Below the pieces are notes generated by a model. That model saw only the letters and a list, made by a program, of their open reading frames with translations. It searched no databases and was not told the DNA's origin. A stretch of 64,000 nt of DNA from an uncultured bacterium (GTDB taxonomy: Bacteria > Acidobacteriota > Thermoanaerobaculia > Multivoradales > JAHZIX01): the NCBI GenBank assembly GCA_965368975.1, contig CBDUPA010000004.1:32001-96000 (forward strand), in the 5' to 3' direction. Made by a program: the position numbers and the translations under genes. The number at the start of each line of letters is the position of its first letter. Position 1 is the first letter of the stretch. Shown here piece after piece: positions 1 to 13,735 of this stretch.

Positions 1-293
1 ATCCGGAGCTGCCGCTGCGCGAGCAAGTCGCCGCCTACGGCAAGATCGCGCGGGCACGCTTCGACGTCGAGCGTTTCGAGGAGTTCAGCGCCGAACACCT
101 GGGACACCTGGGCGAGGTGGTCGACGACTTCTTCAGCTCCGACGTGGCGCGGCAAGCCGTGCAGGCCAAGGTGGCAGCGCTCTATCCGGAGCACGAGGTC
201 GAGCCGTTCACCGACCTCTTCTGGCAGCGCATCCAGGACTGGCGGTGCGAGGAAGGGCATTCCGCGGCAATCTCGAGCTCAGGAGACGAGTGA
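1..293 (+). CDS. 3' end of a gene entering the window; hypothetical, possibly the C-terminus of an ATP-grasp-fold protein
   Basis: Frame +3 is open from the window edge: PELPLREQVAAYGKIARARFDVERFEEF...KVAALYPEHEVEPFTDLFWQRIQDWR...SGDE*. TGA at 291-293 overlaps the next gene's GTG (GTGA). Family assignment is only a recollection of similar C-termini. Confidence 0.6.
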   Translation, partial: PELPLREQVAAYGKIARARFDVERFEEFSAEHLGHLGEVVDDFFSSDVARQAVQAKVAALYPEHEVEPFTDLFWQRIQDWRCEEGHSAAISSSGDE

Positions 294-1432
294 ACGGCGA
301 CGTCTACCTGTGTCTCCACTGCTGGCGGTCGATGGCGGTACGCGACGCCGGCTATCGGTGTCCGCGCTGCGCCAGCGAACCGGATCCCTGGTCGCTGGAA
401 GACGAAGCACGGCCGGTGCGCCACCTGCTCGACGACGGTCCTTGGGCACGTGTGCGTCGGGTCTTCGGGCGGCGAGTCTTCGGGAAGGCGGAGCAGGAGC
501 CCCACTGCCCGCGTCACCCGGACGCGGCGCTGCACTTCTACTGCGCTTGCGGCGAGCGCCTGCTGCCCAGTCTGCGCGTCGATGCCGGACAGCTGAAGGC
601 GGTCGGCCTCGCCGGGCCGCGGGCGAGCGGCAAGTCACACTTGCTGGTAGCGATGATCCACGCGCTGCAGCTGCGAGCCCGGGCGCGCGTCGCTCTCAAC
701 GGATTGGGCACCACCGAGCCGCGCTTCCGTGAGCTGTCGCGCCGTATCCTGGAAGCGGGTGAGCGTCTGCCGGCGACCTCCGAGGCTGCCGACCCGCACC
801 GGCACTTCGCCTGGGAAGTGCTCACCGAGCCAGGCGTGGACGTCAAGCGTCGCCGTGTGCTGGCGGTCTACGACCTGGCCGGCGAGTTCTGGGCGCGCCT
901 GCACGAGGAGCCACCGGAGACCCTACGCCGCTACCTGGCGTCGCTCGGCTCGGTGGCGCTGCTGGTCGATGGTGCCGTGGCCGCCAGCGATCTGCGCATC
1001 CCCGCCCACGACGCTTGGAATCAGCGCCCCGAGCCGGGCGACCACGGTGCCAACGATCGCTTCCTGCTGCGCCAGCTGATCGACGGTTTCGGCCGCGGCC
1101 AGGCGCGTCGCTCGCGTCTTGCCATTGTGCTCACCAAGTCGGATCTGTTCTGGGATCACGCCGACTTCCGCGCTCTGTCGCCCGCCGCTTCCGAACTCGA
1201 ACCCGCTGCTTACCAGAGCTTGATCCGTGGCTTGCTCGAACGCTCCGGCCGTCGGCCGCTGCTGATGAGCGCCGAGCGACACTTCGGGGAGGTGCGCCTG
1301 TTCGCCACCTCCAGCCTCGGCTTCCGCCCCAGCGGTGAGCACGTGGAGGGGGACCAGCTGCGCTACCACATCGAGCCCCACGGCGTCGTCGAGCTACTGC
1401 TGTGGTTGCTGGAGCTGGAGCACCTGGCCTGA
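290..1432 (+). CDS. Zinc-ribbon TRAFAC-class GTPase (double-GTPase system GTPase A)
   Basis: GTG start at 290 with AGGAG at 281-285. N-terminal CLHC..CPRC and CPRH..CAC metal-binding motifs. G1 GPRASGKS, G2 PAT, G3 DLAGE, G4 TKSD, G5-like SSLG. Confidence 0.8.
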   Translation: MNGDVYLCLHCWRSMAVRDAGYRCPRCASEPDPWSLEDEARPVRHLLDDGPWARVRRVFGRRVFGKAEQEPHCPRHPDAALHFYCACGERLLPSLRVDAGQLKAVGLAGPRASGKSHLLVAMIHALQLRARARVALNGLGTTEPRFRELSRRILEAGERLPATSEAADPHRHFAWEVLTEPGVDVKRRRVLAVYDLAGEFWARLHEEPPETLRRYLASLGSVALLVDGAVAASDLRIPAHDAWNQRPEPGDHGANDRFLLRQLIDGFGRGQARRSRLAIVLTKSDLFWDHADFRALSPAASELEPAAYQSLIRGLLERSGRRPLLMSAERHFGEVRLFATSSLGFRPSGEHVEGDQLRYHIEPHGVVELLLWLLELEHLA

Positions 1433-1471
1433 CGGGTCTGTCATCGAGGTGGCCAGGAAAGAGGCATCGAG

Positions 1472-2374
1472 ATGAGCGTCAAGCACTTGCTGTATGGCAA
1501 CCTACCGAGCGAGGATCTGCCGGGTGACGGTCCAGACGATGCGCGTGGTTTCCGCGTGCTGCTGCGCAAGGGGTGGGGTGATGACGGTGCCCCGCTGGAA
1601 GCTACCCGGCTCGAAGCTGCCGAGACGTGGCTACGCGAGCTGCAGCCCGCCACAACCACTGAAGCCAGCAACGCAGAAGCCAGTCCCCCCAAGATCGGCT
1701 ACGCGGCCGCCGGTCTGCGGCTGGATGGTCGGTTGCACAGCTGCCTGGTGCGCGTCGATGGCCGCTTCGGTCGCGATGCCTTCGGGCGTCCCGAGGGTCG
1801 TTTGGCGCACCTGTTGGCCTGTGAGGTCGACGAAGAGCGCGATGCCTGGCTGCACATCGCCTCGCTGGTCGCCTTGATGCAGGCCAGTGAGCAGCTCACT
1901 GGCGGCGAGGAGGCACTTTCCATCGCACAGGTCCGGGCCCAACTCGACCGCCTGCCGCGTGTCGAGTGGGCGTCGCCCAACCTGCAGGCCCTGCGCGTCC
2001 TGGGGCCGCGCCTGCTCGAGCCCTTCCTGACGGCCGCAGCTCGGGTTCTGGACGGTGCGCTCTCCGGTCCGGTCGAGCTGTGCCTGCCGGCCCCGCTGCC
2101 GCGGAGCGTTCCCGAGGTGCTGGCCGCGCTGACGGGAGCCCTGCCTCCACGCCTGCGACTGGCCTTGCGCTGGGGCTGGAACCTGCAGCCCTGCAAGAGC
2201 GTAAACTTGAGGGTGACGACTCATCCTCTCGGGAGCCCAACCGAAGTTCCCCCGGCCTACGCACGGGCCTTGCTGCACCGCTTGCAAGCCGGCGACGATG
2301 GTGCGGTGCGAGCGGTGGTCGAGAACTGGCAGGTCCGATCCTGGAATCAACTCTCAGCGCTGGCGGAGACCTAG
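1472..2374 (+). CDS. GAP1-N2-like GTPase-associated protein
   Basis: 300 aa, GAGG RBS. N-terminal HLLYG..GFRVL and GRDAFGRPEGRLAHLL resemble the G.D..GR.GN..AH signature of GAP1-N2 domains. Later LPPRLRLALRWG motif. Lies between two GTPase genes. Confidence 0.6.
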   Translation: MSVKHLLYGNLPSEDLPGDGPDDARGFRVLLRKGWGDDGAPLEATRLEAAETWLRELQPATTTEASNAEASPPKIGYAAAGLRLDGRLHSCLVRVDGRFGRDAFGRPEGRLAHLLACEVDEERDAWLHIASLVALMQASEQLTGGEEALSIAQVRAQLDRLPRVEWASPNLQALRVLGPRLLEPFLTAAARVLDGALSGPVELCLPAPLPRSVPEVLAALTGALPPRLRLALRWGWNLQPCKSVNLRVTTHPLGSPTEVPPAYARALLHRLQAGDDGAVRAVVENWQVRSWNQLSALAET

Positions 2375-2791
2375 ATGAGCACTACCAAAGCCCCAACTCC
2401 CGGAGAATTGAACCGCCAACAGCAGAGCATGGAGAAGGAGTTGCGCGCCTACGTCGATGCCCAGCTCGATGGCGTCATGGGCAGCGCGCGCGTCGACCAG
2501 CGCAGGTACAGAGCCATCGCCGCCAGGGGGCGAGCCCCCAAGAGCGGGGCCTGGCTGCTGGTGCTGTTGCTCGTCTCGCTGTTTGCCATGGTTGCCTGGC
2601 TGGGTTGGGGAATCAGCGTGCTCAGTGGCCAAGTCGAAGAGTTGGGTGGACGGGTCGAGAGTCTGACGCTCGAAGTCGAACGCCTGCGCGGAGCGGAGCC
2701 GGAAGCGGTCACGCCGCCCGAGGGGGACGAAGAACCGGCCGCGGTGATCGAAGAGCCCGCCGACCCGGCCGTGGAGACGCCCTCGTCGTGA
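2375..2791 (+). CDS. Small single-pass membrane protein with coiled coil and acidic/Pro-rich tail
   Basis: ATG immediately follows the upstream TAG. TM segment WLLVLLLVSLFAMVAWLGWGISVL, then heptad-like LSGQVEELGGRVESLTLEVERL. Stop overlaps the next GTG. Confidence 0.7.
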   Translation: MSTTKAPTPGELNRQQQSMEKELRAYVDAQLDGVMGSARVDQRRYRAIAARGRAPKSGAWLLVLLLVSLFAMVAWLGWGISVLSGQVEELGGRVESLTLEVERLRGAEPEAVTPPEGDEEPAAVIEEPADPAVETPSS

Positions 2792-5394
2792 CTCCCCCTG
2801 CCGGTGAGGGCGCGCCGCACGTCGTCGGTCAGGCTGTCGTCACGGATCCGGGCGGCGACTCGGCCGGTGGCTACGTCCTGGTGGCCGCGTCTCCGAGTGT
2901 TCGGGCCGATGAAGGGCACTTTCTCAAGCGCTGCTCGGGTATCAGCGAGCACTTGCACCGCAGCGAGCGTCCCGGACCGTACTTCACCTTCCTGCCGCTC
3001 CCCAAGAGTCCGGAGTCTAGGGCTGGCCGGGGCAACCACGCACTGATCCGCCGTTTCGTCGCCGGCCGGCGGCGCGGCGTGCACCGCGTCGTGGTGCACA
3101 TGCTGGTGGTGCCGGAACCTCTGCTCGACGCGCTGGACTGGGATGCCACCCTGCTCAGCACGCACTGTCGCTACTCGCCCGTCGGTGCCGCGGCCAGTGA
3201 CACGGGCAGTGACACGGGCAGTGACACGACTGGCGAAGCTGCTGGCGAACGGTTGTCCGACCTGGGCAAGGCCGCAGCGGCCGATCGTCTGCAAGAGTTG
3301 CCGGACTTGCGGTGCTCGCTGCCGGAGGCCGCGGCGGGCGCCGTTCCGGCAGCGCGCGTGGAAGCACAGCGTCAGCGAATCAGGTACCTACAGCGTGAGT
3401 GGGGTGAGCCCGCGCTCTTGGCCACCCTGGGCTGGACCTTCCACACGCTGCTCACCGGTCAGGGTGCGCTGTTGCCGCAGGCGCTGCCCTACCAGCAACT
3501 GCTCACCCTCGCCGCCGCCAGCTTGCCGCGCCGCGACCGTCGCCGGCTGGCCTGGAGCACGCACTTTGCCGCCGGTGTCCGTGCGGACTTCCGGCTGCTC
3601 AACGCGCCGCAACCCGAGGAGGCCCGACGCATGCAGGCGGAGCCGTCCAGCTGGCAGTGCCGTCCGCGCGAGCTCCCAGAAGTCGACGCCACGTCGACGA
3701 AGCTGGGACCGGCGCTCGCGTGGGTGGTGCTGCACGAGCCGGACCTGCTGGAGGCCTTCGAAGCGGGCTGGCGGGACTGGTCGCCGAGTCTGCTCTACGA
3801 CGCCGGTCGCGCACAGCGGTTTCTCGCCTGGCTGCGAGGGGATGCCCGCGGGGCGCGCGAGGGCTTCGCGTCGCTCGACGAGTTGGGAGCCTTCCTGCGT
3901 GCCTGCCGCGACGGCTGGGGCGGTACCGAAACGGAGCGCGACCCTTGGTTGAGTGGCACTGTCCTGCTGCGCGCCACCCTTCGCACTGCCTTGGTGCTCG
4001 CGGCCGGCACGGCACCACGCTGGGATGGATTGCTGCGCGGAACTCAGGAGCAAGTTGACGCTGCCGGCTGGGGTGACACGCTGACGCCGGTGTCAATCGC
4101 TGGTGCTTTGCTCGATACCTTCCAGCAAGCCGCGGATTCGGGTCGTTCGGCGGAGTTGATGGAGCAAGCCATCGTTCCGATGCTCGGGGCGGCACCGGAG
4201 AGGGTTCGGGAGCTGGCTAGTGTGCTCGCCTCTCTGCGCGGCGCAGCCATGTCGGCAACAGGTCGTGGGGAACTGTACCTGGTTGAGCTGTACCAGGAGC
4301 TGGCGGATTTGATCGTCTCGGTACTCGAACTGCAGCCGGAACAAGCCACGGCCGCGCTCGCGGCGCTGTTGCAAGCCGACGGTGTTCGTGTCCTGGACTG
4401 GCATAGCGAATTGGACGCATGGCTCCAGGTGCTGGCCCGTCTCGGCCGTCCCGAGCTGGCGTCGCGGTTGGCTGGTTGCGCGTGGCTGCGCTTGCGCGAA
4501 GAGGTGGGCTTGCGAGAAGAGGCGGGTTTGCCAGAGGAAGCTTGGGACTCCTTTCCCAAGGCCGCACTGCGCAGTCTCGACGTGCTGCAGGCGGAGTCCT
4601 TGCGCAGTGTCCTCGACGCCTGGCGTCCGCGCCTGGAACAGCTCGGCGGCAAGCCGGGCGAGGTGGCGCTCGTCAAGGCGTTGCGCGCGGCCGCGGGGCA
4701 GCTCGACCCCCGGATCGACGCCAAGGCGCAGTTCGATTTCGAGCTGGAGATCCAGCGCCTGCGCGTGGTGCGGGGCGAGCGCAGCACCGGCTCGGCGCTA
4801 CGCCGTCTCGACGACTTGGCCGCCGATCTGAGTGCTCGCCGCGGTCATGCCTTTGCCCTGCCGGGCGACGAGCTGCTATGTCTCTTTCCCCGCGCACCGG
4901 TCCCGTGCTGTGAGGCCCTGCTGCAGGCTTTACTCAGCGGCGCCACGCGCCCGTCCGTCAAGTGGAGCCTGCAGGGGCAGTGGCCGAAGGTGCTGGCACG
5001 CCTGGAGCGCGGGGTGCTCGAAGACGGCGCTGCGGCGCCGGACCTGGGCTGGCTGCCGGTGCCCGCCAAGCTGGCTGGGCGAGGTCGTGTCTTCCTGACC
5101 ACCAGCCGCTGGTTGGGGCGCAACTGGGACATCGATCCGGTCAAGGCCGCCGACTATCTTTCTTTCGCCCTCCAGCGTCGAGAGTTCGCCGCCGTCCAGG
5201 CCTTCCTGGACGCCAGTCGGCGTCACCTCCGCGACGGCAGTGTCGACGATGGTTGGCTGCGCCACCTGGTCGAAGTCGAGCCCAACCAGCTGCCGCAGCA
5301 GCTGCAGATCGTGGTCGGCCAGCACGGAGCCGCAGCCCTGCGCTTCGGCCGTCACGTGGACCGCTTGATCGAGCTGGGTAATACTGGCGCCTGA
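2788..5394 (+). CDS. Large GAP1-like protein (N-terminal GAP1-type domain plus long alpha-helical region)
   Basis: True start is likely the GTG at 2788 (GTGA overlap), giving about 868 aa. N-terminal GQAVVTD..GGYVLVAASPSV..YFTFLPL..VVVHMLVV, internal LPRRDRRRLAWST and FRLL motifs, then Leu/Ala-rich helical sequence. Confidence 0.6.
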   Translation: MTPPAGEGAPHVVGQAVVTDPGGDSAGGYVLVAASPSVRADEGHFLKRCSGISEHLHRSERPGPYFTFLPLPKSPESRAGRGNHALIRRFVAGRRRGVHRVVVHMLVVPEPLLDALDWDATLLSTHCRYSPVGAAASDTGSDTGSDTTGEAAGERLSDLGKAAAADRLQELPDLRCSLPEAAAGAVPAARVEAQRQRIRYLQREWGEPALLATLGWTFHTLLTGQGALLPQALPYQQLLTLAAASLPRRDRRRLAWSTHFAAGVRADFRLLNAPQPEEARRMQAEPSSWQCRPRELPEVDATSTKLGPALAWVVLHEPDLLEAFEAGWRDWSPSLLYDAGRAQRFLAWLRGDARGAREGFASLDELGAFLRACRDGWGGTETERDPWLSGTVLLRATLRTALVLAAGTAPRWDGLLRGTQEQVDAAGWGDTLTPVSIAGALLDTFQQAADSGRSAELMEQAIVPMLGAAPERVRELASVLASLRGAAMSATGRGELYLVELYQELADLIVSVLELQPEQATAALAALLQADGVRVLDWHSELDAWLQVLARLGRPELASRLAGCAWLRLREEVGLREEAGLPEEAWDSFPKAALRSLDVLQAESLRSVLDAWRPRLEQLGGKPGEVALVKALRAAAGQLDPRIDAKAQFDFELEIQRLRVVRGERSTGSALRRLDDLAADLSARRGHAFALPGDELLCLFPRAPVPCCEALLQALLSGATRPSVKWSLQGQWPKVLARLERGVLEDGAAAPDLGWLPVPAKLAGRGRVFLTTSRWLGRNWDIDPVKAADYLSFALQRREFAAVQAFLDASRRHLRDGSVDDGWLRHLVEVEPNQLPQQLQIVVGQHGAAALRFGRHVDRLIELGNTGA

Positions 5395-5425
5395 CGATGA
5401 GCAACCTCGTATTGAGCTACTCCGC

Positions 5426-6748
5426 ATGAGTTACCGCTGCCCCTCCTGCCAGAGCGTGCTCGATGACGCCTTCTGCCCTGACTGCAGTGTGTTGGCGGAC
5501 GAGATTCGCGAAGAGTCTGCCGCGCCGGCATCCGTCGCCCTGCCGCCTTTGCCCGAGCCACCATCGCCCCAATCGCTCCCCGGCTCGCCTTCCGAGCCGC
5601 CCCCCGTCGCCGCCACCAAGTCCGAAGGCACGGTCAGGCTGCCGGATTGGGGCGACGAAGTCGAGTCGCTCGGGCCCCGCCGGCCGTCCACTCGGCACGA
5701 GGCGGAGGTCAGCGTCGACGAGCTGGTGCAGCGTAGCCAGACCCAGGAGACGCCGACCCCGCGCCAGCGCCGCGCCGAACTGGAGCGTCTACAACTCGAC
5801 GGTCGCGACCTGGTCGAGCAAGACCTGGCCGATGGCTTCGAGCTGTTCCTGATCGCCGGCGTCGGCGGCAGCGGCAAGACCGAGTTGCTGGCAGCGCTGA
5901 GCAAGCTCGACGCCGGTTTCCTGCAGGACTTCGACCGCGACGAGCTGGGCCGGGTCACGCGCACCACCGTGCGATCCATCCATAGCCGTCACGTACGCGC
6001 GCCCGGCCGCAAGCTCAGTTTTATTGATGCCCCGGGTGAGCTCTTCGTCGACCTCTATCCCCTGCGCGACGCGGACGGCTATGGCGACAGCTACGGCGGG
6101 GGGCAGATCGAGCTGTGGCCGCAGCTGATCGCGCAGCGCTTCCGCGGCATGATCCTGGTCATCGACCTGGAGAAGCTGTGGTCGCTCGACGGACCGGCCG
6201 AGTGGCGCCAGCAGATCGAGATCGCTGCCTGGGTGCTGGAGGTCATGCGCTGGCTGCAGCACGATGGTCACTATCCGAGCGGCAGCTCGCACCAGCTGCA
6301 CCAGTACATCGATCGCCAGGTGCGCGGCATGAAGAAGAAGCTCAGCGTGCCGGTGCAGGTCGTGTTCACCAAGGCGGATGTGGTCAAGGGCACGCCGATC
6401 CCCAACTACCAGCGGCGGCTGTATCCCGTGGGTGAAGACCCCGTGCTCTTCGCCTTCCACTGCCTGCCCAAGCTGCACGACGCGCTGGTCGAACACGTGG
6501 CGCACTTTCGCTACGACTTCACTCACGCCATCGTCACCGACGGCACTACCGGCGCCGCGACCCAGCGTCCACCCTGCGGCGTGCGCTTGTCCATGGACTG
6601 GTTGCTCGATGCTGCCTGGGCACGCCAGCACTGGTGGCAGGTCACCACGGGTGGCTGGCTGCGCTGGCAGCGGCTTGTCGATCTCCTGACCGGCAAGAGG
6701 GAGCGCTGGAAGCGATTGCCGGACCCGGAACCTTTGGACTCGCCCTGA
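5426..6748 (+). CDS. Zinc-ribbon TRAFAC-class GTPase (double-GTPase system GTPase B)
   Basis: N-terminal CPSC..CPDC, Pro-rich linker, G1 GVGGSGKT, G2 RTT, G3 DAPGE, G4 TKAD. Trp-rich amphipathic C-terminus. Confidence 0.8.
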   Translation: MSYRCPSCQSVLDDAFCPDCSVLADEIREESAAPASVALPPLPEPPSPQSLPGSPSEPPPVAATKSEGTVRLPDWGDEVESLGPRRPSTRHEAEVSVDELVQRSQTQETPTPRQRRAELERLQLDGRDLVEQDLADGFELFLIAGVGGSGKTELLAALSKLDAGFLQDFDRDELGRVTRTTVRSIHSRHVRAPGRKLSFIDAPGELFVDLYPLRDADGYGDSYGGGQIELWPQLIAQRFRGMILVIDLEKLWSLDGPAEWRQQIEIAAWVLEVMRWLQHDGHYPSGSSHQLHQYIDRQVRGMKKKLSVPVQVVFTKADVVKGTPIPNYQRRLYPVGEDPVLFAFHCLPKLHDALVEHVAHFRYDFTHAIVTDGTTGAATQRPPCGVRLSMDWLLDAAWARQHWWQVTTGGWLRWQRLVDLLTGKRERWKRLPDPEPLDSP

Positions 6749-6778
6749 GACGACCTTGCTCTGAGAACTGGATCGAGC

Positions 6779-8527
6779 ATGCGCATCCAAATCAAACGCC
6801 CCGACGTCCCCGTAGCTCGTCTGTTGGCCTTCGTGCTACCCCTGGTGGCTGGGCTGATGGTGTTGTACGCCATGCTGCGGGTCCTGCCACATGCCGGCGA
6901 TCCCGCCGCTCTGCTGCGAGGTGCCCGTCTGCTGGCAGAGCGCACGCCGGTCGTCGAGGTGGGTTGGATCGAGGAAGCTTTCCCGCCGCGCTACCTCACC
7001 TCGCCGCCCGGGGCTCTGCCGTGCGCCAGCCGCACCAACGCACCCCGCCGCACGCGTGCCGCCGTCGAGACAGCATTGGTCGAGGCGCGTCGAGGCGAGA
7101 CGCAAGTCGCCATGGACCGCTTGCAGCGTCTGGGAGACCGTCACTGGCTGCCGCCGCTGGTCCTCGGTCTACTGCTGCTGGACTCGCAGACTGAGGCTGC
7201 TCAGGCTGAGTTCGCTCAGACAGAGAACGTCTCGCGTAGTCAGCTGGTGCTGGTGCGCGCCGTCGAACGTCAGGGTATCCGGCCGAGCGACAACGAGCAG
7301 ACCTTGCGCGCACAGATCTACCTGATGCAGGCCACCGCCTTCCTGCAGATCGAGCACGACCGAGCGGACGACAACCTGTTCACCTATGTCAAGAACCCGA
7401 TCGGTTTCACCAAGCTGCTGGTGCAGCGGGGCCGCTTGGCCGACGTCCAGTCGATGCCCACCTGGAGCCAGCTGGAGATTGCACCGCCCGGCTGTCCGCC
7501 GGGAACCCGGGGAGCGCTGTCAACCTACGATCTCTACAACAACCTGCTGGTGGCCTATCTGAAGTCGCCCGACTATGAAGAGACACAGAGCGAGCGAGAC
7601 GACGAGTTCAAGCGCACCTATCGAGACTCGCCGGTGTCCAACCCGCTGCTGATGGTGCTGCGCGAGGTGCAGCAAGATCTGACCGGCGGCGAGAACTGGG
7701 TGTGGGCGATCTCCAACGCCGAACGCATTCTGCGCTGGAATCCGGCGTCACCCAACGACGCCCGCCTGAGCTACAACCTGGCTGCGTTGCTCGATTCCGC
7801 CCTGCCTCACACCCCGGATGCCGCCCGCGCGTCCCTGCTACAGCGGCGCGACGATTTGCACCAGGCGGCGTTGGACTTGCGGGATCAACTCCAGGCTGGC
7901 GAACGTGCCGAACTCGTGGTCGGCCTGCTGCGACTCGACCTGCTGCGCGCCGCTCGTCAAAGTCGCCAGCCGGATGCTCTTTTGCTCGACGCCGCGACGC
8001 TCACGTCGGCCCAGCAGCGGACCGCTGACCAACTCCTGGCCGCACTGGCACGGCGCATCCATCCCGAGCAGCTGGCCTCGACCTTCACGCAGGCAGGTCG
8101 CACCGATGCCAGCCACACGCAAGTCGGCGTGGAGCTCGGCGAGCGCGCCACCGACTGGTTGGCCGCCCTCCGCTGGGACACGGCATCGACCCTCGGCCAG
8201 ATCGGCCTCGACCGGCGCGAAGAACTCGACTCGGCGCAGCTCTTGACCTACGCCCAGACCGGCTATGCCCTGCTCGATGGTCAGACCGCGCCGCCCGCAC
8301 TGGCCGAGCTGCGCGGCCTGGTCGACGATTGGCGTCGCTGGCTTCTGCCCGACTCCGTCCGCCTCGCCTGGCAGATTCTCGCCACCGTGCTGGCGCTGGC
8401 CGTCTTCCTGCTGCTGTGGCGCGAACTGCACTGGATCGCAGTGCTGCTGCGTCGCCGCAAGGCGCTGCTGACGTCCTTCTACCGCCTGGAAGCGGACGCT
8501 CAGCGGCGAGCGGCGGGACGCGGCTAG
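6779..8527 (+). CDS. Membrane-anchored hypothetical protein with N- and C-terminal TM helices
   Basis: 582 aa, 30 bp after GTPase B. TM LLAFVLPLVAGLMVLYAML near the N-terminus, TM LAWQILATVLALAVFLLLW near the C-terminus, helical middle region. Confidence 0.7.
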   Translation: MRIQIKRPDVPVARLLAFVLPLVAGLMVLYAMLRVLPHAGDPAALLRGARLLAERTPVVEVGWIEEAFPPRYLTSPPGALPCASRTNAPRRTRAAVETALVEARRGETQVAMDRLQRLGDRHWLPPLVLGLLLLDSQTEAAQAEFAQTENVSRSQLVLVRAVERQGIRPSDNEQTLRAQIYLMQATAFLQIEHDRADDNLFTYVKNPIGFTKLLVQRGRLADVQSMPTWSQLEIAPPGCPPGTRGALSTYDLYNNLLVAYLKSPDYEETQSERDDEFKRTYRDSPVSNPLLMVLREVQQDLTGGENWVWAISNAERILRWNPASPNDARLSYNLAALLDSALPHTPDAARASLLQRRDDLHQAALDLRDQLQAGERAELVVGLLRLDLLRAARQSRQPDALLLDAATLTSAQQRTADQLLAALARRIHPEQLASTFTQAGRTDASHTQVGVELGERATDWLAALRWDTASTLGQIGLDRREELDSAQLLTYAQTGYALLDGQTAPPALAELRGLVDDWRRWLLPDSVRLAWQILATVLALAVFLLLWRELHWIAVLLRRRKALLTSFYRLEADAQRRAAGRG

Positions 8528-9834
8528 GTTCGCAGCAACGACATCCCCTGTCCCGCCCAGCCCGGAAAGACGACGGAATCCTCCGCGACGCCGAGGTGGT
8601 GGGTCGCGCCGCTGAAGACCGCTCTGAAGTCCGTGGTTACTGGTAGGTCTCGCCCTTCGTAAAGGGCGCTCTCGTCGAGTCCGGGGAAATGACCGTGGAC
8701 CTTGCCGCCGTCGACCTGGTTGCCGAGCACGAAGAGGCAGGAGCCGTGGCCGTGGTCGGTGCCGCCGGAGCCGTTCTCGCGCACGGTGCGGCCGAACTCG
8801 GTCATGGTCAGCACCAGCACGTCATCCTGGTGCGTACCGAGGTCGGTCCAGAAGGCGGCCACGGAGTCGGCGAGATCGCGGGCACGGCGGGCGAAGGAGC
8901 CGGTGGAGGTGCCTTGCTGCACATGGGTGTCCCAGCCGCCGGATTCGGCGAAGGCGATCTCGAGGCCGAGGTCGGCCTTGATCAGCATGGCGATCTGGCG
9001 CAGGGAGTTGCCCAGTGGACTGCGCGGATAGCGCGCGCCGTGGGCCGGCCGGTAGCTACGCAGGTTGGCCTGTTCGAGCGCACCGACGGCGTCGAAGGTG
9101 TCGTCGGCGGTGTCGCGTAGCAGGTCCTGGGAGGTCTGCTGGTAGAGAGCTTCGAAGCCCTGGCCGGCTGCCTGGGTGGCACGCCGTGCACCCGGCAAGT
9201 CGACGCGGAAGTCGGCCAGATTGGTGACCGCGATGGCGGGCTCGGCGCCGTAGAGGGAGCGTGGCAGCGCGGAGGTCATGGCGACCGAACGGAAGGGCGT
9301 GGCGTCGTGACCGAGCAGGCCGCTGACGCGGTTGAGCCAGCCGCTGGGGGTGCCCTTGCGACCGGGGGTGGCGGTTTCCATGTAGTCCTGGGCGTCGAAG
9401 TGGGAGCGCGTGGTGTCCGGCGAGCCGACGGCATGGATGATGCCCAGACGTTCGTCCTGCCACAGCGGCAGCAGAGGCTCGAAGGCGGGGTGCAAACCGA
9501 AGTCGACACCGAGGTCGAGGAGAGCCTCTTCACCAGCACCGCGGCCGGCGTTCATGGCCAGGCGTGGACGGTAGCGCTGCAGAGCGCTCAGCTCGGTCAG
9601 CGGCGGTACGGCCATCAGGCCATCCATGGCGCCACGTTGGAAGATGGTGACCAGGACCTTGCGACGTTTGTAGGCGCCTGGCTCGGGGGCGGCGAGGGCG
9701 GTGCGATGCAGGAACGAGGGCCCGAGGCCGAGGCTGCAGAGCGCGAGGCCTCCGGCTTTGAGGAAGATGCGGCGGTCGAGGTGCGTCTCCCGGGATCGAG
9801 TTGGGGATGACGTCTTGCCGTGGTGGTCACACAT
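8524..9834 (-). CDS. DUF1501 family protein, Tat-exported
   Basis: ATG 9834 with AAGGAG RBS. Twin-arginine RRIFLK. Motifs FQRGAMDGL, RSHFDAQ, GGWDTH, TEFGRT..ENGSGGTDHG. Confidence 0.85.
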   Translation of the reverse strand: MCDHHGKTSSPTRSRETHLDRRIFLKAGGLALCSLGLGPSFLHRTALAAPEPGAYKRRKVLVTIFQRGAMDGLMAVPPLTELSALQRYRPRLAMNAGRGAGEEALLDLGVDFGLHPAFEPLLPLWQDERLGIIHAVGSPDTTRSHFDAQDYMETATPGRKGTPSGWLNRVSGLLGHDATPFRSVAMTSALPRSLYGAEPAIAVTNLADFRVDLPGARRATQAAGQGFEALYQQTSQDLLRDTADDTFDAVGALEQANLRSYRPAHGARYPRSPLGNSLRQIAMLIKADLGLEIAFAESGGWDTHVQQGTSTGSFARRARDLADSVAAFWTDLGTHQDDVLVLTMTEFGRTVRENGSGGTDHGHGSCLFVLGNQVDGGKVHGHFPGLDESALYEGRDLPVTTDFRAVFSGATHHLGVAEDSVVFPGWAGQGMSLLRT

Positions 9835-9859
9835 GTGGGGGCTCCTTCGGAGGAAGATG

Positions 9860-11911
9860 TTACCGTCTTTGAAACTCGGGGGATCCCAGGATGACGCCGA
9901 TGACTTGTTCCAGAGGGGTGGGGGGAGCGTAGCTCTGGGAGGCAAGGCGACCCGAGGAACCGAAGAGAAGGTTGTCGAGTTCCGGGTCGACGGCGTAAGG
10001 ATCGTCCGTGCTCGGCTCGGGTGCGGCTCCGCTCACTTTGTCGGCGAGGGCCGGATCCTGGACCACCGGCGTCAGCAGTGCGATGGTCCCCTCAGCGTCG
10101 CGCTCGGGCATCAACAGCGGCACATAGGTCTCGAGCGCGGCCTGCATCGACTCGGGCTCTCGGTGCTCGCCAGCCGGGGACGCGGCCAGGGCTGACAGGT
10201 CTAGACGCACGCCGTCGACGCGACCAGCGGCCAACTGCAGGCCGAAGTTCATGCGATTGAGCAGCGAGCCGGTGTTGACCCAGGCGTCGGCGGTGTCTGG
10301 GTAGCCGGTGGGGGCCTGGTAGGCATAGAGCGGTTGGCCCATGCGTGACACCCATTCGAGGGTGCCTTGCGGGTGCGACACATCGGCGTCGAGAGCGCGC
10401 AGCGTCGAGGCGGCGAGCTCGAGCGGTGACTTGATCTTGCTGCCGCGGGCCTGCCAGAACTCGGGAGACCGGACCAGCGTGCGCAGGACGGTCGGTAGGT
10501 CGCCGCGGGAGCGCTCGAAGGTCGAGGCAAGGCGTTCGACCAATGACGGGGAGGGCTGATCCGTGACGAAGCGGACGGCGAGCTTGTGCGCCAGGTGACG
10601 GCCGGTAGAGGCATGATCGGCCAGCAGGTCGAGCACGTCTTCGCCGTCTTCGATACCGCGCCCGGCCGGCAGGGTGGTGCCCAGGACGCGCTTGGCGGCG
10701 GCGTCGTGGGCGTCGGCGCGGAAGAGGAACAGGCCGTCGACATGGAAGCCGGCGCGCGCCGCCCTGTGTGGATTCTCGCTCAGGCGCTCCAGGGCACGCT
10801 GCTGGCTGCCATCGCGGCCGATGCGGGGTGGCAGCACGCTCCAGCCGGTAAAGGCCCGAGCTACCTCGATCACATCGTCCTGGCTGTAGCCGCCGTCGAC
10901 GCCGAGGGTGTGCAGTTCGAGCAGCTCGCGTGCATAGTTTTCGTTCAAGCCATCGCTGCGTCGGCGTTGCCGCGCTTCGTCGTCGCCCTCGCGTGAGCCG
11001 CGTCGCGGGGCTTGGCTGCCACCAAAGCTCCCCGGTCGCTGTCCACCGAAGCCGCGCTGCCCGCCGAAGCTACCTCCGCGTCCGCCCCGGCCTCGACGCA
11101 TCTGGCGCGGGTCGAAGGTCGTCGGACGACCCTCTTCAGCGGTCGAGCGAGCGTTGTCCAGGTAGACCAGCATTGCCGGGTGGCGAGCGGTGGCGCCGAG
11201 CAGGTCGCGGAAAGTGCCGAGCACGTGCGGGCGAATGGCGTCACGCTCGTAACTCAACACCAGCGGTCGAGCGAGATTGTTGGTGATCGAAACGTTGAAA
11301 TGGTTGAACCAAAAGTCCGTCAGCACCTCGCGTAGCTGATTCTCCGCGTAGACGGCACGTCCGAGCTTCTGTGCCATCGTCTCGGCCAGCAGTTCACGCT
11401 GCGGCCGGATGCCCTGCTGCTCGGCCCAGCGTCGCACCTGCTCGAACATCGCCCGTCGATTCCGGTCGCTGCCGTTACTGTCACCTGGTTGAAGATCGGC
11501 GTCGATGACGCCCTCGCGGCGCGCACGGTTCAGGACCAGACCCGGATTCGGATAGGTCTCGACAATCTTTTCCAGCGGTAGGTCCAGTGTGCCGAGTGGC
11601 TCGAGCTTCTCGCGCAAGCGCGGCTCCGGCAGACGTGCGGTCAGCTGCGTTTCGAACCAGGTCTCGAGGCCCAGTTCGAGCACGCGGTCGACATCCCCTG
11701 GCCTGGGTCCATAGGTCCAGCGGTCGAGCAGGTGAGCGGCGGCCTGGCGTTCGCTGAGACCAGCGTCGCGCCAGGGGAAAGCGCCTGAATCCGTGCGTTC
11801 TTGCCGAGCCGTGTTCGTGTCGGTGGCCGCAGATTCGATCGGCGTGCTGAGCACCGCCAAGACGCTGACCAGGAGGGTCGAGAGAGCGAGCAGAGTTTTC
11901 AGTCGGGGCAT
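9860..11911 (-). CDS. DUF1800 family secreted protein
   Basis: ATG 11911 with GGAGG RBS and signal peptide. Motifs FWFNHFNV, HPAMLVYLDN, NENYARELLELHTLG, ARAFTGW, C-terminal SPEFQRR. Paired with DUF1501. Confidence 0.85.
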   Translation of the reverse strand: MPRLKTLLALSTLLVSVLAVLSTPIESAATDTNTARQERTDSGAFPWRDAGLSERQAAAHLLDRWTYGPRPGDVDRVLELGLETWFETQLTARLPEPRLREKLEPLGTLDLPLEKIVETYPNPGLVLNRARREGVIDADLQPGDSNGSDRNRRAMFEQVRRWAEQQGIRPQRELLAETMAQKLGRAVYAENQLREVLTDFWFNHFNVSITNNLARPLVLSYERDAIRPHVLGTFRDLLGATARHPAMLVYLDNARSTAEEGRPTTFDPRQMRRGRGGRGGSFGGQRGFGGQRPGSFGGSQAPRRGSREGDDEARQRRRSDGLNENYARELLELHTLGVDGGYSQDDVIEVARAFTGWSVLPPRIGRDGSQQRALERLSENPHRAARAGFHVDGLFLFRADAHDAAAKRVLGTTLPAGRGIEDGEDVLDLLADHASTGRHLAHKLAVRFVTDQPSPSLVERLASTFERSRGDLPTVLRTLVRSPEFWQARGSKIKSPLELAASTLRALDADVSHPQGTLEWVSRMGQPLYAYQAPTGYPDTADAWVNTGSLLNRMNFGLQLAAGRVDGVRLDLSALAASPAGEHREPESMQAALETYVPLLMPERDAEGTIALLTPVVQDPALADKVSGAAPEPSTDDPYAVDPELDNLLFGSSGRLASQSYAPPTPLEQVIGVILGSPEFQRR

Positions 11912-12151
11912 GGGGTTCCTCCAGGTCGGTTCGTGGCACATGCAGGGAGTAACCCGCGAGGACATCGGATCCTGCGCTCGCTGTGAGCAAGTGAGTTGAT
12001 CCCAGACAAGAAGAAGCTCTTCTGCTATACTAGAATTCTATCTATTAAGCTGAGGCCGATTCTCTGTGAGATTTGGCGCCGGTTCCCTTGAGTTGAGGCT
12101 GAGTCACTGCGAACAGCTTGCTCCGACAGCGCGAGAGGAGAACGAAGGGTC

Positions 12152-13735
12152 ATGGCGAGAACATCGCGAGTCTGGACCAGGTGGGTCTGGTTCCCATCAT
12201 TGATCTGTGCGGTACTGCTCACTGGTTGCCCGCCCGCTGGCGGTCCGGTAGAGGAGCCGCAGAACGGTGACAACGGGTCGGCGAGAGAACCCGAGCCGAA
12301 CCACGAGGTGGAACCGGGACCAGAACCGGAAGGTGTCCACATTCGGCGTGACATCTACGACCTGGATCAGAACGACCCCGAGATGGTCGCGGCGCTGGAA
12401 ACGGCGATCGCCGCCATGCAGGCTTTGCCCGCCAGCAACCAGACGAGCTGGATCTACCAGGCCAACATCCACGGCATCCCCGAACAGGGCAACATGAGCG
12501 GGCAGATCTGCCAGGTGACCACCGGCGTCTCAGACCCGGTGTCCTGGGAGACTTGCCAGCATGGCCAGTACTTCTTCCTCTCCTGGCACCGCATGTACCT
12601 CTACTACTTCGAACGTATCCTGCGTCACTACTCGGGGCGTGACGACTTCGCCTTGCCGTACTGGGACTACGAGAAGCCGGGTCAGCTCGCGTTGCCGCCG
12701 CCCTTCCGCAATCCGGACAGCCCGCTCTTCGTGGCACAGCGTGCGCCGGGCATCAACCAGGGCACGACGCAGCTGTCCAGCACCGACGTCGATCCCACAC
12801 AGGCCTTGATGCGCATTCCGTTCATTGGCACCATGAGCGCCTCGACGCTGAGCTTCGGCGGTGCCGAGGTGCCGGCCCCGGACCACAGCGGTGGTTGGCC
12901 GGGACAGCTCGAAGTGCGACCGCACAATGTGGTGCACACCTCGCTCGGCGGCAACGTTGGTTGGATGTCCTGGCCGCAGTGCGCGGCGCGCGATCCGATC
13001 TTCTGGTTGCACCACGCCAACATCGACCGCCTGTGGCAGGTGTGGCTGAACGTCGGCGGCGGCCGGGCCAATCCGGTGGGCGACAGCGAATGGCTGAACA
13101 CCGTCTTCACCTTCTTCGACATCGAAACCGATGGCACGCCCAAGGAAGTGACGATGACGGCCGTGGACATCCTGAACACTGTTTCGCAGCTGGACTACAA
13201 GTACGCCGGTGTGCCAGCGCAAGAGGCGGTCACGCCAGAGGCGGCTCCGCCTGAGGTAGCCCCACCGGCTTCTCCGGAAGCGGCCGAGGAGGCCCCCGAA
13301 ATGCTGGCCAGCCACGAGAAGGTCGAAGAGCTGACCGACGAACGCGCGCGCGTCGCACTGACCTTGCCGGAGGCGGAGACCGAACTGCTGCGCGACGACA
13401 AACGGCTGATCGTGGTGGTCAAGAATGTGCGCCAGGTACGCGTGGGCGCCTACTACCGGGTGTTCCTGAACCTGCCGGCAGACGCCGAAGCGGATCCAGA
13501 AGGTCCGTACTATGTGGGCGTGATTTCTCTCTTCGGCACCGGCCATGGAGTTCACAGCCCGCACGCCAGCAACTTCGCCTTCGACATCACGGCCAATGTG
13601 CGCCAGCTCCAGGAGCAGAATCTGTGGACTGGCGATGTCTCCCTGAGTTTCGAACGCGCCAATCCGCAGCCCTCGCCGCAGGGTGAGGATGGTCCGTTCA
13701 TGACCTTCGACGCGGTGGTGCTGCAGCGGCAGTAG
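12152..13735 (+). CDS. Tyrosinase / polyphenol oxidase (type-3 copper), predicted lipoprotein
   Basis: Lipobox LLTGC. CuA ligands in NIHG, CQH and WHR. LPYWD. CuB HNVVH and ARDPIFWLHHANIDRLW. C-terminal domain with YYRVFLN. Confidence 0.85.
   Translation: MARTSRVWTRWVWFPSLICAVLLTGCPPAGGPVEEPQNGDNGSAREPEPNHEVEPGPEPEGVHIRRDIYDLDQNDPEMVAALETAIAAMQALPASNQTSWIYQANIHGIPEQGNMSGQICQVTTGVSDPVSWETCQHGQYFFLSWHRMYLYYFERILRHYSGRDDFALPYWDYEKPGQLALPPPFRNPDSPLFVAQRAPGINQGTTQLSSTDVDPTQALMRIPFIGTMSASTLSFGGAEVPAPDHSGGWPGQLEVRPHNVVHTSLGGNVGWMSWPQCAARDPIFWLHHANIDRLWQVWLNVGGGRANPVGDSEWLNTVFTFFDIETDGTPKEVTMTAVDILNTVSQLDYKYAGVPAQEAVTPEAAPPEVAPPASPEAAEEAPEMLASHEKVEELTDERARVALTLPEAETELLRDDKRLIVVVKNVRQVRVGAYYRVFLNLPADAEADPEGPYYVGVISLFGTGHGVHSPHASNFAFDITANVRQLQEQNLWTGDVSLSFERANPQPSPQGEDGPFMTFDAVVLQRQ

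Follow-up and report, generated by a model that had tools for sequence, protein, structure and literature searches.

A putative switch-only form of an eight-gene DO-GTPase/GAP1 envelope cassette in an acidobacterial genome

DO-GTPases, as set out in the main text of a comparative-genomic survey (Kaur, Burroughs, Iyer and Aravind, 2020, eLife 9:e52696, PMC7159879), are recognized by a DxxGE Walker B motif and N-terminal ribbons; GTPase-centric systems are classed there as conflict systems, and some of their effectors are inactive versions of cellular enzymes. In a full-text literature search, DO-GTPase/GAP1 systems were named in a single comparative-genomics paper (PMC7159879); an unrelated methods paper was the one other match, and no experimental study was found. 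The locus described here lies at nucleotides 290-8527 (+ strand) of a 64,000-nucleotide stretch of acidobacterial DNA (the window; contig CBDUPA010000004.1 of assembly GCA_965368975.1, positions 32,001 to 96,000, handled as G000:C4:32001-96000). The host genome, G000, measures 7.1 Mb, is 99.3% complete and has ~68% G+C. Six co-oriented and tightly packed genes follow one another in the order A-B-C-D-E-F (Table 1). They are read as the GTP switch, with its membrane adaptors, of a conserved, sporadic eight-gene envelope cassette whose full form would gate or position a wall-synthase-like pair of proteins, and this reading is judged somewhat likelier to be right than wrong. Sequence comparison places the cassette in what appears to be an undescribed divergent branch of DO-GTPase/GAP1-N2 systems. 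An earlier annotation of the window, made from its letters (the original prediction), had suggested that the architecture might be undescribed, and the main text of PMC7159879 mentions neither this arrangement nor SEDS/PBP-like partners; DENN and longin are likewise not mentioned in that main text, and the phylum is not named in it.

Like the GAP1-N2-type DO-GTPase systems in the main text of PMC7159879, the cassette encodes TRAFAC-type GTPases with a Walker B Glu and one or two N-terminal zinc ribbons, has two GTPases (the paralogy of which is weakly supported here), places a GAP1 gene beside a GTPase gene and includes transmembrane (TM) components in the operon. In two related genomes (G129 and G444), B-like and C-like parts with a TM were found in one open frame, which recalls the GAP1-TM fusions of PMC7159879. 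Unlike the systems described there, the operon carries two GAP1 paralogs, one with an ARM/HEAT-like extension of ~500 amino acids (aa), and a second GTPase without TM helices; a fibronectin type III (FNIII)-repeat component and a tubulin, HSP70 or kinase theme are absent; and the relatives carry constant SEDS-like and penicillin-binding protein (PBP)-like partners.

The eight-gene form was recognized in relatives. The gene order recurs in 8 other genomes of the phylum, where the cassette continues into two more genes, G and H. By tblastn, A-D-E-F-G-H were located in the same order and on the same strand at L019/L008 (G010), L009 (G045), L030 (G129), L031 (G099), L032 (G444), L033/L034 (G081) and L035 (G011); at L007 (G047), A-B-C-D were followed until the contig ends inside D, and H was found on another contig. 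For B, tblastn gave matches in G081 and the closer loci but in no others. Genes A to H of G010 are linked in a chain of 4-nt overlaps, and in each of the other carriers examined G and H are joined to the operon by overlaps of 4 nt. The closest relatives (P0005 and P0018) lie on one 34-kb contig. Since orthologs of all six genes occur in the same order in other genomes, the six are, by this conserved order, real genes and not chance open reading frames (ORFs) of G+C-rich DNA. The six-gene synteny that had been set as a check on the original prediction was thus recovered, with the difference that the six genes are not the whole unit in the relatives. H was present in 8/8 other carrier genomes and G in all 7 carriers examined for it, and for this reason cell-wall synthesis is the likely output, likelier than the unspecified membrane assembly that had been put forward.

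In G, two N-terminal TMs precede a soluble stretch of ~390 aa at about residues 60-440, and the protein shows at least 10 hydrophobic segments. The SEDS hidden Markov model (PF01098) scored 29.7 bits on G of G099 (cut-off 26.4) and 22.2 bits, below the cut-off, on G of G129. Comparison of G with 8 housekeeping SEDS proteins by hhalign gave a probability of 87 (E-value 4.1e-6, 193 columns), and together these scores weakly suggest that G, which is polytopic, is a divergent protein of SEDS (RodA/FtsW)-like type. H (~950-990 aa) was examined in four sequences, and a TM anchor was present in 3/4. Its N-terminal TM is followed, in order, by GSAxKP, SCN and KTGS; the three corresponding motifs (SxxK, SxN and KTG) were all found in two full-length sequences and one C-terminally cut sequence, and the fourth is partial and stops short of the KTG position. 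When a profile of H was searched against the PDB, only class-B PBPs were matched (8 chains, PBP3 and PBP2, E-values 1.4e-5 to 9e-3), and H is accordingly described here as a predicted class-B PBP-like protein. As in the SEDS-class-B PBP pairs (RodA-PBP2 and FtsW-FtsI), G and H of the relatives are encoded side by side with translational coupling, G can be aligned to SEDS proteins and H matches PBP2/PBP3. Unlike those pairs, G has two extra N-terminal TMs and an insert, the ~390-aa soluble stretch, and the catalytic Asp column (RodA D262) is not conserved in it; H is much longer than typical class-B PBPs; and the pair is not in the window and was not found in G000. The full cassette probably acts on peptidoglycan synthesis, as far as its predicted protein families indicate.

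Several results weigh against this assignment of the output. PF01098 gave no match on G in G010 and G081 (2/4 system genomes searched), and the G profile gave no match to PDB sequences. On H, the Pfam Transpeptidase model (PF00905) reached 17.2 and 16.2 bits, below its cut-off of 22.1. The Asp of the HTDF motif corresponds to E. coli RodA D262 (counted on the alignment), and a D262A substitution abolishes polymerase activity (reported in PMC6207328); this column holds Pro or Thr in G, with a Glu or Asp 2-3 residues upstream in 5/5 sequences. The window copy is without the proposed output, which makes what it does at present the weakest link of the reading. The distribution of the cassette is sporadic, which also fits a conflict system: a search with D of 60 related genomes returned 3 carriers (0/5 in the same family), and among 400 genomes of the phylum a profile detected 5. 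A reading of G as a catalytically dead SEDS protein was considered and withdrawn, given the conserved acidic residue near the Asp column.

In an alternative reading, the cassette is a conflict or defense system as understood by Kaur et al. (2020). GTPase-GAP1 pairs would then set a threshold, and the periplasmic parts of C and F would sense an invader. In the full cassette, G and H would be copies of a cellular subsystem, perhaps inactive or dominant-negative, and would serve as effectors that bring wall growth to a halt in an abortive infection; the window copy would be a derivative without effectors. This alternative is regarded as possible and as clearly less probable than the envelope reading. 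It agrees with the membership of A in DO-GTPase2 and of B and D in GAP1, with the classification of such systems and the inactive enzyme-derived effectors noted in the main text of PMC7159879, with a sporadic cassette flanked differently in each genome, and with the unconserved catalytic Asp column of G. H, on the other hand, has retained the full set of three PBP motifs, the G-H pair is constant across carriers and not variable, and the six proteins lack the FNIII component that GAP1-N2 systems are described as having (no FNIII match in Pfam; the F and D models are all-alpha outside the GAP1 module). PADLOC (PADLOC-DB 2.0) returned no significant match, with P-loop-level matches only (E-values 0.015-0.09), and an NCBIfam scan returned nothing useful. 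The examined flanks, which are metabolic or housekeeping in content, contained no defense gene. Pattern scans, which are limited by their patterns and give no measure of rarity, yielded 2 true loci in genome_contigs, nothing beyond a P-loop match in metagenome_contigs and no relative in viral_contigs. A conflict or defense role had been raised for the locus at the outset, and nothing specific was found in its support: no match to a known system reached significance and the flanks are not defense islands. Pfam, PADLOC and NCBIfam revealed no nuclease, TIR, peptidase, vWA or tubulin domain in the six proteins, in agreement with what had been noted before. Overall, the constant partners G and H and the non-defense flanks lean to morphogenesis or repair, and the sporadic distribution leans to infection-triggered wall arrest.

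Queries with G and H gave no match in G000, no remnant of either gene was found within the window, and the only SEDS genes of G000 (PF01098) are the two housekeeping ones. C is 138 aa long in the window and ~300-345 aa in the L008 and L007 orthologs; the window protein is without a C-terminal domain of ~130 aa that these two share. Since G/H were found in the other carriers examined for them and not here, and since C is shorter, the window locus is, on these comparisons, a truncated, switch-only variant of the eight-gene cassette. A further alternative holds that it is a decaying remnant without present function, left after deletion of G, H and part of C. The failure to find H (present in 8/8 other carriers) and G (in all 7 examined) and the shortened C would be expected of such a remnant, as would the overlap of the F stop with the stop of a convergent DUF1501 gene. 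The six genes themselves argue the other way: all six frames are open, every family-invariant column is kept (alignments of A, E, B and F), the G1/G3/G4 and zinc motifs are intact, and so are the translational-coupling junctions and the ribosome-binding site of A. Decay is considered unlikely.

Gene starts and junctions were read from the window sequence. A starts with GTG at 290, with AGGAG 5 nt upstream; the preceding gene (421 aa) is unrelated, and its stop overlaps this GTG. A and B are separated by 39 nt, B and C abut (0 nt), and D starts with GTG at 2788, overlapping the C stop (TGA) by 4 nt; gaps of 31 nt and 30 nt separate D from E and E from F. In a scan of positions 1-9000, neither a sigma-70-like promoter nor a terminator-like site on the + strand came up. 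With these coordinates and with orthologs in the same order, the co-oriented, tightly joined six-gene arrangement of the original prediction was borne out, as were its components: two zinc-ribbon GTPases with motifs intact (G1/G3/G4 present in A and E), two membrane proteins (one TM in C and two in F by hydropathy), and a GAP1-like gene beside each GTPase, for which B and D were identified by profile methods, though below the Pfam cut-off.

Table 1. Genes of the six-gene locus, with positions in the window and the evidence used for each assignment.
Feature	Position (nt)	Strand	Evidence
Gene A, DO-GTPase, 380 aa	290..1432	+	Pfam DO-GTPase2, motifs, orthologs with 38-53% identity
Gene B, small divergent cytoplasmic GAP1 (N2+M-like), 300 aa	1472..2374	+	hhalign, ESM Atlas clusters
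Gene C, bitopic membrane protein, 138 aa	2375..2791	+	Hydropathy, longer orthologs
Gene D, giant GAP1, 868 aa	2788..5394	+	N-terminal profile, hhalign, structure model
Gene E, second zinc-ribbon GTPase, 440 aa, probable DO-GTPase paralog	5426..6748	+	Motifs, sub-threshold DO-GTPase2, hhalign
Gene F, two-TM protein, 582 aa	6779..8527	+	Hydropathy, 7 orthologs, model

The GTPases were tested against the Pfam DO-GTPase families (PF19993/PF19975). A scored 33.7 bits on DO-GTPase2, above the cut-off of 27. Its N-terminal zinc ribbon (CxxC...CxxC) consists of CLHC(8) and CPRC(24), and a second knuckle, C-x2-H...C-x-C, is kept in 5/6 aligned homologs. The nucleotide-binding motifs of A are the P-loop GPRASGKS(109), DLAGE(195) and TKSD(282). 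In an alignment of six homologs, G109, G114, K115, E207 and the K283 and D285 of TKSD are invariant; the DLAGE columns are not, with 1/6 homologs (P0007) lacking the motif. E has a single ribbon, CPSC(5)/CPDC(17), and the motifs GVGGSGKT(145), DAPGE(201) and TKAD(315), of which P-loop residues G148-T152, D201, G204 and E205 of DAPGE, and A317 and D318 of TKAD are invariant in three aligned sequences. On DO-GTPase2, E scored 13.5 bits and its L008 ortholog 18.1 bits, both below the cut-off, and hhalign of E against the A family gave a weak match (probability 55, E-value 1.2e-4, 220 columns); E is probably a weaker DO-GTPase paralog of A, judging from motifs and profiles. Both A and E are P-loop GTPases in which G1/G3/G4 and the conserved Walker B Glu characteristic of DO-GTPases are present. 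Word-based searches recovered 4 homologs of A and 5 of B, and are pattern-limited in the same way as the scans above. A second DO-GTPase2 protein of the host genome (838 aa, 48.6 bits) was encountered on another contig (G000:C46; L048:2253-15165, - strand), where it shares a co-oriented gene row with a zf-HC2 protein, three proteins of unknown kind and two CHAT (caspase-like) proteins, of which one also has tetratricopeptide repeats (TPRs); in appearance that row comes closer to a classical conflict-type GTPase system.

The GAP1 families (GAP1-N2, PF20013; GAP1-M, PF20014) were applied at a cut-off of 24 bits. B gave no Pfam match and D gave 15.1 bits on GAP1-M; orthologs were likewise sub-threshold (GAP1-N2 14.6 bits, GAP1-M 14.2 bits). 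A profile of the D N-terminus, made from residues 1-400 of D together with three orthologs, was searched with HMMER against 1.84 billion representatives. It retrieved 221 proteins at an E-value <= 1e-3, of which 81 (D-like or GAP1) were at <= 1e-10; large D-like proteins ranked at the top, followed by small proteins matching only the first ~110 residues. In a Pfam scan of 37 of the 150 listed matches, 25/25 small proteins carried PF20013 GAP1-N2 above cut-off, and among the 12 large ones 1 passed GAP1-M, 3 had sub-threshold GAP1-N only and 8 had none. Aligned by hhalign to 17 canonical GAP1 proteins, the D N-terminus gave a probability of 99.2 (E-value 8.4e-20) over 251 columns across N2 and M. 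B, with five homologs, gave a probability of 91 against the canonical GAP1-N2/M set (E-value 1.1e-6, 205 columns) and of 93.8 against the D family (E-value 1.7e-7, 213 columns); an earlier B-versus-D comparison with shallow alignments was not significant, and deeper alignments were required. By these profile methods alone, both non-GTPase soluble proteins are GAP1 paralogs. The nearest ESM Atlas clusters to B are GAP1-N2/GAP1-M proteins of ~300 aa (score 0.95, 203/256 features shared), a lead that agrees with the profile result. Each GTPase adjoins a GAP1 gene, with B after A and D before E, and the same holds in relatives. The Pfam GAP1-N2 model (PF20013) matched 0/201 genomes of the phylum at an E-value <= 1e-5, cassette carriers included, and is thus blind to this GAP1 branch as a whole. 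Just upstream of cassette GTPase A in G081, a second short D-like GAP1 ORF was seen (L033:10512-11222, - strand; a divergent 320-aa open frame), which matches the D N-terminal profile with an E-value of 5e-60.

A structure model of D was built from a 56-sequence alignment (mean predicted local distance difference test, pLDDT, 85.3). In the model, residues ~8-339 (nt 2809-3804) form a GAP1 N2+M/DENN-like alpha-beta module and residues ~433-868 (nt 4084-5391) a predicted ARM/HEAT-like solenoid, with Z-scores of 8-11 that are ordinary for helical repeats. Residues 8-339 were superimposed on the guanine nucleotide exchange factor (GEF) domain of DENND1A (6ekk_A) with a Z-score of 7.9 and a root-mean-square deviation of 5.4 A over 254 residues, spanning chain residues 8-366 of 375, with no sequence signal. 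Foldseek matched D to 6ekk_A with an E-value of 0.015 and a probability of 1.00, and DENND1B and the folliculin complex were among its weak matches. The modeled GAP1 module of D resembles the DENN fold, as fold likeness only. As in the DENN Rab GEFs (DENND1A/B with Rab35; PDB 6ekk, 3tw8) and the folliculin/FNIP DENN module, the predicted D 8-339 fold covers nearly the whole DENND1A GEF domain; as in DENN-Rab pairs, GAP1 is paired, here genomically, with a small P-loop GTPase, and GAP1 is three-part (N, M, C). On the other side, sequence identity is 8-12%, so that the likeness is one of fold, the Z-score is middling, and the comparison is made with the D model.

The membrane proteins were analyzed by hydropathy. 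C has a basic N-terminus, one TM at residues 58-76 (nt 2546-2602), and then a tail that is coiled-coil-like, acidic and Pro/Glu-rich; its N-terminus is predicted to be inside. F has TM1 at residues 15-33 (nt 6821-6877) and TM2 at ~529-555 (nt 8363-8443), and a conserved, basic tail ending in ...TSFYRxE; PGC, YDLYNNL and WAxSNAE motifs are invariant among 7 orthologs. The F model is all-alpha (pLDDT 78.8), and its residues ~87-430 (nt 7037-8068) form a predicted TPR-like solenoid, for which the best 50 VIA-align rows were all of TPR type (Z-scores 10.3-14.2); Foldseek gave no match to the model at an E-value <= 0.001. Because basic residues flank both TMs on the side of the termini, the solenoid should be periplasmic.

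Flanking genes differ between genomes. Around the window copy they encode a peptidase S51, an esterase, DUF1501/DUF1800 proteins and a tyrosinase; elsewhere they include BamD, Lon and an epimerase (G099), a YcaO cluster (G444) and a TPR/C2 protein (G010). The upstream gene of 421 aa was evaluated as a seventh member and rejected, with no tblastn match in nine related loci and no Pfam match. This upstream region spans window 1-293 (+ strand) and the DNA before it (L002:8848-12293); in it the 421-aa gene is preceded by the esterase and S51 peptidase genes, and divergent neighbors encode an ATP-grasp protein, an M20 peptidase and a GAF histidine kinase, none of which is conserved beside the cassette elsewhere. 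Downstream lie the convergent DUF1501 and DUF1800 pair (window 8524-11965, - strand) and the tyrosinase, which has PPO1_DWL and DUF7868 domains (window 12152-13735, + strand). Directly upstream of the G099 cassette are genes for a BamD (YfiO) lipoprotein and a TPR protein (L031:13166-14769, - strand), a link that may be coincidental.

The following mechanism is proposed for the envelope reading. If DENN-Rab pairs are taken as the model, each GAP1 protein (B or D) would bind the neighboring GTPase and set its nucleotide state, and the D solenoid would serve as a docking platform. C and F, the latter with its periplasmic TPR-like solenoid and short conserved cytoplasmic tail, would link the cytoplasmic switch to the envelope. 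Most likely, G-H would be a third, dedicated pair resembling a peptidoglycan polymerase and transpeptidase, which the full machine would gate or position. From the window copy, G and H would have been lost together with the outer domain of C, and its switch would now act on housekeeping RodA/FtsW-PBP pairs, or the copy may be a recently orphaned remnant with six intact genes. A more general proposition is offered tentatively and is considered rather doubtful: DO-GTPase/GAP1 pairs may be prokaryotic modules of a small GTPase and a DENN-like regulator, which in this branch would use a TPR-like periplasmic adaptor to steer a dedicated third SEDS-class-B PBP synthase, additional to those of the elongasome and the divisome.

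The branch gives DO-GTPase/GAP1 systems a concrete candidate output, in that the SEDS-like and PBP-like partners point to peptidoglycan synthesis and not to a toxin, and the DENN-like fold predicted for GAP1 suggests Rab/GEF-style logic in bacteria. The window copy, a natural switch-only form, would offer a way to ask whether housekeeping synthases can be acted on by the GTPase module. If the more general proposition is true, at least part of the 'GTPase-centric conflict systems' would be envelope-morphogenesis or repair machines and not immune systems, and the six-gene copy would show that the switch can persist without a synthase of its own.

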